The notes beneath the pieces are model-generated. The model was not told the DNA's origin and searched no databases. It worked only from the letters and a program-made list of their open reading frames with translations. A stretch of DNA of 64,000 nt from an uncultured Alphaproteobacteria bacterium (GTDB lineage: Bacteria; Pseudomonadota; Alphaproteobacteria; RF32; CAG-239): assembly GCA_944391475.1 (NCBI GenBank), contig CALXTR010000003.1, forward strand, positions 50,823 through 114,822. The letters run 5' to 3'. Below are positions 63,557 to 64,000 of the stretch, piece after piece (position 1 is the first letter of the stretch; each line of letters opens with the position of its first letter). Made by a program: the position numbers and the translations under genes.

Positions 63557-63983
63557 CCAATTGTTCAATTAGGAAGTTGAGTACCGGAAAACCTTTTTTA
63601 GTAGCTTTAAGATGAGTGGGAGTGTTGATTAACCAACCACCTTCTATAAGTTCGGCTAGTTTTTGTTGGTTAACAACTTCTTCAAGCTCCAATCCGCAGG
63701 TAGAAAAGAATAAGGATTTATCAATACCTTGCACTAAACGCAACCCCATTAACAATAGCTCTTCGGCTCTCTCAGCGGGACTAATTTCTTCCAGCTGACA
63801 ACGATAAGTCGTGGCATAAAAAACCGGAAGATTAGATGATTTTTGAGCGTACAAATTAGTAGGTGAGTTCCCTGCACCGGAATTTTGCTTTAGGTTCTCC
63901 TCTTTTGGTTCCGGACACGGTTTAACGGTTTTTAACGTGGAAGATAAAGTGAAATCACGGAGCGCAGAAACTTGAGCGTACAT
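63546..63983 (-). CDS. hemW: Radical-SAM HemW/HemN-like protein, C-terminal portion (HemN_C domain); the upstream part contains repeat-family hairpins, so it may be a gene fragment
   Basis: LTPAERAEELLLMGLRLVQGID...LIEGGWL resembles HemN_C. The rest of the gene lies beyond the window edge. Confidence 0.5.
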   Translation of the reverse strand: MYAQVSALRDFTLSSTLKTVKPCPEPKEENLKQNSGAGNSPTNLYAQKSSNLPVFYATTYRCQLEEISPAERAEELLLMGLRLVQGIDKSLFFSTCGLELEEVVNQQKLAELIEGGWLINTPTHLKATKKGFPVLNFLIEQLVSQ

Positions 63984-64000
63984 ATCAGTACGTGAGTTCC

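Follow-up and report, generated by a model that had tools for sequence, protein, structure and literature searches.

The window analyzed here, a stretch of 64,000 nt, ends inside hemW, which is encoded on the minus strand and has its C-terminal 151 codons within the window (Table 1). Two 27-mers of this gene, gagcgtacaaattagtaggtgagttcc and gagcgtacatatcagtacgtgagttcc, had been picked out in a sequence-only reading as hairpin repeats that are read in the same minus-strand frame as NSPTNLYAQ and NSRTDMYAQ, respectively. Translation bears this out: from 63998 to 63546 the minus strand is a single open frame that contains NSRTDMYAQ, then NSPTNLYAQ, and ends at the stop at 63546. The second 27-mer, previously placed at about 63965, begins at 63974, and its last base is the window edge. 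The spacing between the two is 129 nt, i.e., 43 codons, and the 129-nt units that hold them are identical at 126 of 129 positions (97.7%; blastn E-value 9e-64), far beyond chance; the short 12-mer by itself shows no enrichment within the window. A tip hairpin is perfect in the second 27-mer (CGTAC-ATATCA-GTACG, 63977 to 63992) and has one mismatch in the first (CGTAC-AAATTA-GTAGG, 63848 to 63863).

The gene was followed past position 64000 on contig L001, which was found through an exact-sequence lookup of a neighboring protein (window 61299 to 62570). L001 positions 2703 to 12702 are 100% identical to window positions 54001 to 64000, and the window coordinate equals the L001 coordinate plus 51298; the remainder of hemW was thus taken from another assembly, identical over the last 10 kb of the window, and not from the window. 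On L001, hemW is an ORF of 558 amino acids (12248 to 13924, window equivalent 63546 to 65222), in which the radical-SAM domain with its CxxxCxxC motif (CRSKCPYC, residues 12 to 19) follows in frame. Pfam searches show Radical_SAM (PF04055) at residues 6 to 165 (E-value 2e-19) and HemN_C (PF06969) at residues 480 to 546 (E-value 2.9e-15), and the NCBIfam HemW equivalog TIGR00539 gives 295.2 bits against a cutoff of 205.4, scored on the 472-residue allele P0001, which is the 558-residue sequence minus two units. Thus, hemW here is an intact radical-SAM heme-chaperone gene, and the suggestion that it is a truncated remnant overwritten by repeats is ruled out by the extension of the ORF to 558 residues with both domains.

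Tandem Repeats Finder detects one array on L001 at positions 12545 to 13115 (window equivalent 63843 to 64413), with a period of 129 nt, 97% matches, and 4.4 copies free of indels, so that 1.2 of the 4.4 units lie inside the window. The array is a coding tandem repeat: its copies run head to tail, its period is divisible by 3, its frame stays open, and its translation reiterates NLKQNSG(V/A)(R/G)NSRT(N/D)MYAQVSALRDFTLSSTLKTVKPCPEPKEE. It is flanked by an 18-nt inverted copy of unit positions 78 to 95, and no antisense or alternative ORF of at least 30 amino acids spans it. The two 27-mers are therefore the same part of successive units in one tandem array and not separate insertions.

Table 1. 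Features of hemW and of the palindrome family in the window (window coordinates)
Feature	Coordinates	Strand	Basis
hemW 3' part, C-terminal 151 codons plus stop (63546-63548); gene continues to ~65222	63546-64000	-	Open frame, L001 ORF, Pfam, TIGR00539
HemN_C-coding region, residues 480-546	63585-63785	-	PF06969; coordinates computed from the stop codon
Array, in-window part; 1.2 units of 129 nt (43 codons)	63843-64000	-	Tandem Repeats Finder, blastn with one unit, translation
First 27-mer, NSPTNLYAQ; degenerate tip of the final unit, which is partial and comprises just the left arm and the tip	63845-63871	-	Weak covariance-model match 63843-63866
Second 27-mer, NSRTDMYAQ; perfect tip CGTAC-N6-GTACG of the fourth unit	63974-64000	-	Covariance-model match 63966-64000, 28.9 bits
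Fourth-unit palindrome, cut at the window edge (full element, window equivalent 63937-64028)	63937-64000	-	Covariance model on L001 12639-12730, model positions 22-113, 82.4 bits; array fold
Full-length copy, 140 nt, starting at the stop of a co-oriented FabG-like short-chain dehydrogenase ORF (45017-45754)	44881-45020	-	Covariance model 62.6 bits, E 4.3e-14; nhmmer 2.2e-6
Full-length copy overlapping the stop of co-oriented ftsH (30749-32614)	30613-30752	-	Covariance model 57.9 bits, E 7e-13; nhmmer 1.7e-5
Full-length copy overlapping the stop of a co-oriented ORF (23358-24464)	23231-23362	-	Covariance model 62.5 bits, E 4.8e-14; nhmmer 4.3e-7; fold z -7.0
More diverged palindrome, same or sister family, tip GTGTAT-N-ATACAC, beside the 23231 copy	23109-23227	-	Covariance model 33 bits, E 1.9e-6; fold
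Diverged palindrome beside the 30613 copy	30507-30610	-	Covariance model 24.6 bits, E 2.8e-4; fold
Isolated tip-hairpin fragment AGCGTATATAGAAATACGTG	44826-44857	-	Covariance model 19.4 bits, E 0.006, model positions 51-82

HemW homologs that are 94 to 98% identical have 386, 429, 472, or 558 amino acids and differ by whole 43-residue units; the 386-residue allele of the P0036 lineage can be taken as real because its junction residues are distinct. In different strains, the copy number ranges from 0.3 to at least 4.4 units, with most counts coming from short-read assemblies, where tandem repeats collapse or break. Lineages with 60 to 75% identity, which probably come from the human gut, carry diverged repeats at the same position in HemW. 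DNA was compared from ten insert-bearing lineages, in which the array period is 129, 120, or 123 nt, each divisible by 3, and units are 92 to 100% alike inside one genome versus 65 to 90% among lineages. Alleles without a complete hairpin are found in every lineage (P0017, P0036/P0085, P0091/P0092, P0081, P0082, and P0103), and the role of the hairpin must therefore be dispensable. The related insert-free proteins P0114, P0118, P0111, P0113, P0116, and P0117 read AHGR-x5-K-IYATT, and insert-free orthologs have only about 6 residues at the insertion site. The matches listed when genome contigs were scanned with the HemW alignment all came from outgroups that lack the insert, with identities of up to 66%, and these served as a negative control.

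In an AlphaFold2 model of the 429-residue allele P0003 (mean pLDDT of 81), insert residues 269 to 332 have pLDDT values below 50, and the insert is placed at the turn of a β-hairpin (strands 263 to 266 and 339 to 343) between the radical-SAM core and HemN_C. The added 43-residue segments are accordingly predicted to be disordered and to lie in a surface turn that tolerates a loop. In a neighbor-joining tree, the insert-bearing lineages do not form one clean clade, and a single origin therefore also needs losses or recombination, although a tree of this single gene is too weak to tell one origin plus losses from other histories. The divergence of the element parallels the lineage hierarchy (90, 84, and 74% identity), which argues against recent transfer, as far as sequence comparison can tell.

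The small hairpin, which the sequence-only reading had taken for the repeat itself, is present but forms only the tip (CGTAC-N6-GTACG) of an imperfect palindrome of 90 to 135 nt that makes up each array unit. The first unit, together with the upstream RLTVFNG codons, gives a hairpin of about 125 nt with about 47 bp (DNA fold of -35.4 kcal/mol, z = -6.45), and the same fold is seen in all ten lineages. RNAalifold, run on the ten-lineage hemW alignment, yields 47 pairs, and compensatory double changes occur in 17 of these, compared to 1 to 3 such pairs in controls with partners slid by 1 to 3 columns. Likewise, 97.7% of the cells are paired in the hemW copies, versus 87% in shuffled and 32 to 50% in slid alignments. 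These compensations rewrite the encoded residues: at the tip, CGT/GCT is replaced by TGT/ACT (R and A to C and T), and in an arm, TAAAG/CTTTA becomes TAGAG/CTCTA and then TGGAG/CTCCA; changes in the arms turn K into E and L into P. On the sense strand, hemW copies have 27 G·U versus 6 A·C oppositions, a sense-strand bias.

Element identity between the lineage of the window and the others is 73 to 90%, whereas the hemW flanks are 56 to 72% identical overall and 35 to 50% at third codon positions. Within the element, codon positions 1, 2, and 3 have identities of 0.77, 0.80, and 0.77, and unpaired columns are conserved likewise (0.69 to 0.80). Because the stem compensations alter residues and conservation is equal across the three codon positions, the array is constrained as a nucleic acid structure and not as a peptide; the element is, on these comparisons, better conserved than the rest of hemW. 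In the orthologous copies between rpsO and pnp of L087 and L089, the element is 83% and the remaining spacer 84% identical, and this pair is too close for a comparison of rates.

The hemW unit also has relatives outside hemW. A covariance model built solely from hemW copies and then searched against the window matches three intergenic palindromes over their full length on the minus strand (57.9 to 62.6 bits; E-values 4e-14 to 7e-13), and a sequence-only nhmmer profile matches the same three (E-values 4e-7 to 2e-5). The proposed membership of the hemW hairpins in an intergenic YGTAYA hairpin family is thereby upheld and extends to the whole element of about 130 nt. The copy at 30613 to 30752 (repeat family D4) is 98% identical to the one at 44887 to 45019, and the latter, at its full extent of 44881 to 45020, has a DNA fold of -37.1 kcal/mol (z = -8.8). 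As a negative control, 80 outgroup alphaproteobacterial loci (0.94 Mb) were searched with the covariance model and yielded no match at an E-value below 0.1. In the hemW frame, intergenic copies give similar peptides (e.g., SRISIYAQ) but with stop codons, and most dispersed copies have stops in all frames.

Three copies in relatives are also located at co-oriented gene stops, including those after rpsO and hslV. A core-motif scan of metagenomes gave 57 loci, many of them labeled human gut, and 53 copies were confirmed by the model. At about 27 distinct metagenome sites, a same-strand stop codon lies -30 to +25 nt from the 5' end of the element, and the mirrored orientation is found at just one; in these syntenic loci, co-orientation with transcription is inseparable from the direction of replication. 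None of the approximately 30 other family sites has a copy inside a spanning ORF, so that hemW is the only internal in-frame site seen in the family. A protein search with the repeat peptide retrieved only two truncated HemN_C fragments, a weak negative for other insertions in the same frame. To judge from these matches, the hemW unit belongs to a dispersed family of 130- to 140-nt hairpin elements that are normally found at or overlapping co-oriented stop codons, and the hemW copy is its atypical internal, translated member.

Typical dispersed copies have the ends stop-AAAAGTTCG...CGAACTTTTT, and the outer stem of the stop-codon copies runs from an A-tract to CGAACTTTTT; a stem of about 47 bp is atypical for a terminator, and the simple promoter/terminator scan was not designed for stems of this length. 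The hemW copy is devoid of this A-tract/U-tract outer stem, and its role may therefore differ from that of the stop-codon copies. Element ends often read TAAAAG...CTTTTA, where a TA or TTAA duplication is indistinguishable from the stem. Like MITEs (below 300 bp), the elements are short (130 to 140 nt), palindromic from end to end, devoid of a transposase gene or long ORF, and repetitive: the 64 kb of the window contain at least 5 copies, and metagenomes have about 30 sites. Tandem copies are also found at the intergenic sites L121 and L144. L090 has the copy between hslV and hslU, L001 has a half-element remnant of it, and L088 and L093 lack it. In an alignment of the entire family that was fitted to the model and leans towards structure, 39 of 47 pairs covary, 92% of the cells are paired versus 66% in shuffles, and hardly any variation is seen in the UAGAG/CUCUA helix or the CGUA/UACG tip. 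Dispersed copies likewise have a sense-strand bias, with 85 G·U versus 32 A·C oppositions. The G·U excess is partly circular, as the model itself prefers G·U. No Rfam family covers the array or the intergenic copies, and one tRNA is the sole Rfam match in the window (an lncRNA at an E-value of 0.88 is noise); the insertion peptide has no NCBIfam match at an E-value of 1 or less and no Pfam match at 0.01 or less.

Taken as a description, the locus very probably represents an intact hemW with an in-frame array of a dispersed, stop-codon-associated palindrome that is constrained as a nucleic acid structure. The best overall explanation, to which we assign a probability of roughly 0.6, is an in-frame palindromic insertion like those of the Rickettsia palindromic elements (RPEs), tandemly amplified, under nucleic acid constraint and with a putative role for the sense-strand RNA. 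The RPE-like insertion had been proposed in the sequence-only reading, and this part of it stands, given the insert-free orthologs and the homologous intergenic palindromes, whereas the two separate insertions have given way to one array. A single member of the family would have inserted into hemW on one occasion, in a frame that by chance was open, with the TAA of the element read out of frame (cgT TTA ACg), and the insertion would have been tolerated because the site is a surface turn. The array would then have expanded and contracted by slippage or unequal recombination between the hairpin-forming units, which would account for copy numbers from 0.3 to at least 4.4 and for periods of 120, 123, and 129 nt.

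The hairpins may act in the sense transcript, as the stop-codon copies may, in the form of an mRNA stem-loop for processing, stability, or pausing; judging from sequence, we put the chances of this a little short of even. A broader version is offered tentatively: the palindrome could be a functional cis-acting structured RNA, or a strand-specific single-stranded DNA, which is kept by purifying selection and translated within a housekeeping ORF. The family would then be an undescribed class of structured elements on co-oriented stop codons in gut Alphaproteobacteria, and its invariant motifs (the UAGAG/CUCUA helix and the CGUA...UACG tip) might be recognized by a trans-acting factor that takes part in the 3'-end formation, processing, or stability of mRNA.

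The alternative that survives best, although we consider it unlikely, is that the element is a selfish or neutral passenger of no use to the cell, in which pairing and sequence are kept by slippage duplication, arm correction in extruded hairpins, and homogenization, while selection on HemW keeps only the frame. Such a passenger would be expected to vary in copy number and period as the array does (0.3 to 4.4 units; 120, 123, or 129 nt), and the greater similarity of units inside a genome than between lineages, the common deletion alleles without a hairpin, the tandem copies at L121 and L144, and the decay of intergenic copies, e.g., to the half-element remnant after hslV in L001, all fit it as well. 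Unbiased conversion, however, leaves the long-term substitution rate unlowered, yet third positions of the element have an identity of 0.77 versus 0.35 to 0.50 in the flanks, and the unpaired columns are conserved as well. Divergence that follows the lineage hierarchy is, in turn, what is expected under vertical descent with constraint.

It is far less probable that the 43-residue units are a functional linker or binding module of HemW and that their dyad symmetry is incidental. No unit of any lineage interrupts the frame, and certain residues recur, such as SRT.(M/L)YA and TLSS, but equal conservation of the three codon positions and compensatory stem changes that alter residues (R/A to C/T, K to E, and L to P) do not suit a peptide under selection, nor do the predicted disorder of the region, the stops in that frame of the homologous noncoding copies, the lack of a Pfam or NCBIfam match, and the existence of alleles with 0.3 units. 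An internal duplication of native hemW sequence, i.e., an ordinary coding minisatellite with no mobile-element origin, is hardly credible either: the left outer arm does overlap the RLT..NG codons, which resemble the insert-free turn GRITHNGK, but insert-free orthologs have just about 6 residues at the site, and the unit is homologous to dispersed intergenic palindromes. A hemW pseudogene or an assembly artifact can be practically dismissed, since the split gene of L002, for which one gene caller gave only a 145-residue product, is due to an N-gap in the array across which the frame stays open, and although contigs L003 to L005 end in or beside the array (that of L003 inside it), the 558-residue ORF of L001 has both domains, and in-frame arrays are present at this hemW site in each of ten independently assembled, diverged lineages.

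Among the known systems, RPEs are elements of 100 to 150 bp that are found both in intergenic regions and in frame inside housekeeping ORFs, where the peptide is compatible with the fold (PMC10969869; PMC3184786). The hemW unit resembles them in that it is an alphaproteobacterial palindrome that has inserted into an ORF without breaking the frame and that recurs at other places in the genome. It differs from them in having no match to curated families (as searched with Pfam, NCBIfam, and Rfam profiles), in its nonrickettsial hosts, largely from metagenomes labeled human gut, and in its tandem amplification; moreover, in-frame insertion is frequent for RPEs, whereas here it is seen at one site versus about 30 stop-codon sites. 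MIRUs are units of 40 to 100 bp that form variable-number tandem arrays at gene junctions, overlap stop codons, and are not long palindromes. The MIRU-VNTR loci share with the family described here short units in variable-number arrays and the overlap with junctions and stop codons, but MIRUs are located between the genes of operons, whereas this array lies inside a conserved enzyme.

ERIC, BOX, RUP, SPRITE, and bcr1 are stem-loops of 100 to 160 bp that are co-transcribed and sometimes fused to the ends of ORFs; in bcr1, the RNA structure is kept by compensatory changes, and SPRITE is terminator-like (PMC3184786). The hemW family differs from all of these in sequence and in hosts, and in the literature on them we found no description of a strict co-oriented abutment on stop codons or of a deeply conserved copy within a coding region. 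PARCELs, which are defined by their protein sequence, are amphipathic motifs of 25 residues that form intragenic variable-number repeats with DNA dyad symmetry in surface proteins and ORFs of unknown function (PMC2996958). The hemW array is similarly an intragenic variable-number tandem repeat with DNA dyad symmetry, but its unit comprises 40 to 43 residues, is predicted to be disordered, and is found in an enzyme; its constraint acts on the DNA or RNA, and it has no Pfam repeat match.

REPs are dispersed extragenic palindromes, and their doublets, REPINs, are hairpins of about 100 nt. A RAYT/REPIN system was considered and rejected: no RAYT was found, and the one Y1 transposase encoded nearby, which is that of strain L002, belongs to an ordinary IS200 that has end hairpins of its own (NF033573, 119 bits; 24.8 bits with the REP-associated transposase model, against a cutoff of 80), and the covariance model finds no family copies flanking it. 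Literature searches returned no report of a comparable repeat in hemW.

In-frame palindromic repeats of Rickettsia are usually regarded as tolerated selfish DNA, and the translated hemW copy is, by contrast, the most conserved nucleotide stretch in its gene. With compensatory changes that rewrite the peptide, it provides a clean natural example of an ORF in which nucleic acid structure takes precedence over protein sequence. It also reveals a repeat family in uncultured Alphaproteobacteria, with many contigs labeled human gut, whose regular place is at the stop codon in the co-oriented direction. In practical terms, the array can be used as a marker for strain typing, and in these metagenome-assembled genomes it repeatedly leads to broken assemblies and split gene calls.

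Nearly every dispersed copy of the palindrome family either begins at the stop codon of a co-oriented gene or overlaps that codon. Such a placement is seen at approximately 27 distinct sites in the metagenome loci (L095 to L151), with a single mirrored case, as well as in the window and in contigs of its relatives (see the table). The outer stem of these copies consists of an A-tract ... CGAACTTTTT. At the 3' end of hemW, this gene and a convergent ORF for a 300-aa membrane protein overlap by 11 nt, which leaves no space for a hairpin 3' of the hemW stop codon.

Positions of the repeats and associated features
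Feature	Contig	Positions
Palindrome copies at stop codons	window	23231-23362, 30613-30752, 44881-45020
Palindrome copies at stop codons, relatives	L087	4118-4256
	L089	3674-3812
	L090	8443-8579
Left-arm remnant downstream of hslV	L001	15230-15290
Tandem array, 3 units	L121	2573-2923
Tandem array, 2 units	L144	1030-1268
N-gapped part of the hemW array	L002	10608-10787
IS200-family transposase gene	L002	18469-18873
Convergent membrane-protein ORF	window	62654-63556
Overlap of this ORF with hemW	window	63546-63556
Paralogous small ORFs	window	30051-30299, 44369-44614
Palindromic-repeat series behind these ORFs	window	30340-30760, 44626-45030
300-nt direct repeat	window	49766-50065, 50231-50530
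1013-aa ORF (minus strand)	window	49599-52640
62-nt direct repeat	window	3628-3689, 3869-3930
tRNA gene (minus strand)	window	3915-3988

Tandem amplification is not peculiar to hemW, as the dispersed element also forms arrays of three and two units, each following an ordinary gene, in two metagenome contigs (L121 and L144). Intergenic copies also decay by deletion: downstream of hslV, the relative L090 has a complete copy, of which L001, the contig that matches the end of the window, retains the left arm alone, whereas L088 and L093 have none.

The array within hemW coincides with assembly breaks. In L002 it contains an N-gap, and the ends of contigs L003, L004, and L005 fall in or adjoin it. 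From such broken or gapped arrays, one gene caller yields only a 145-aa HemN_C fragment, which is a recurring annotation artefact for hemW. In L002, the L25 gene is additionally separated from the gene that follows by an inserted IS200-family transposase gene (NF033573, 119 bits), which has end hairpins of its own. L001 lacks this insertion at the corresponding site, and so, therefore, does the window strain.

Several other repeats are found in the window. Two paralogous ORFs of 81 to 82 aa (74% nucleotide identity) each precede a series of distinct palindromic repeats that is the same in both places (families D19, D13, D10, D5, and D4); ORF and repeats together make up a repeated composite block of approximately 650 nt. 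A 300-nt direct repeat (94% identity, 465-nt spacing) within the 1013-aa ORF is an internal duplication of approximately 155 residues in a large protein. Finally, two 62-nt direct repeats, 97% identical and 241 nt apart, look like an attachment-site-like duplication, the second copy overlapping the 3' end of a tRNA gene.
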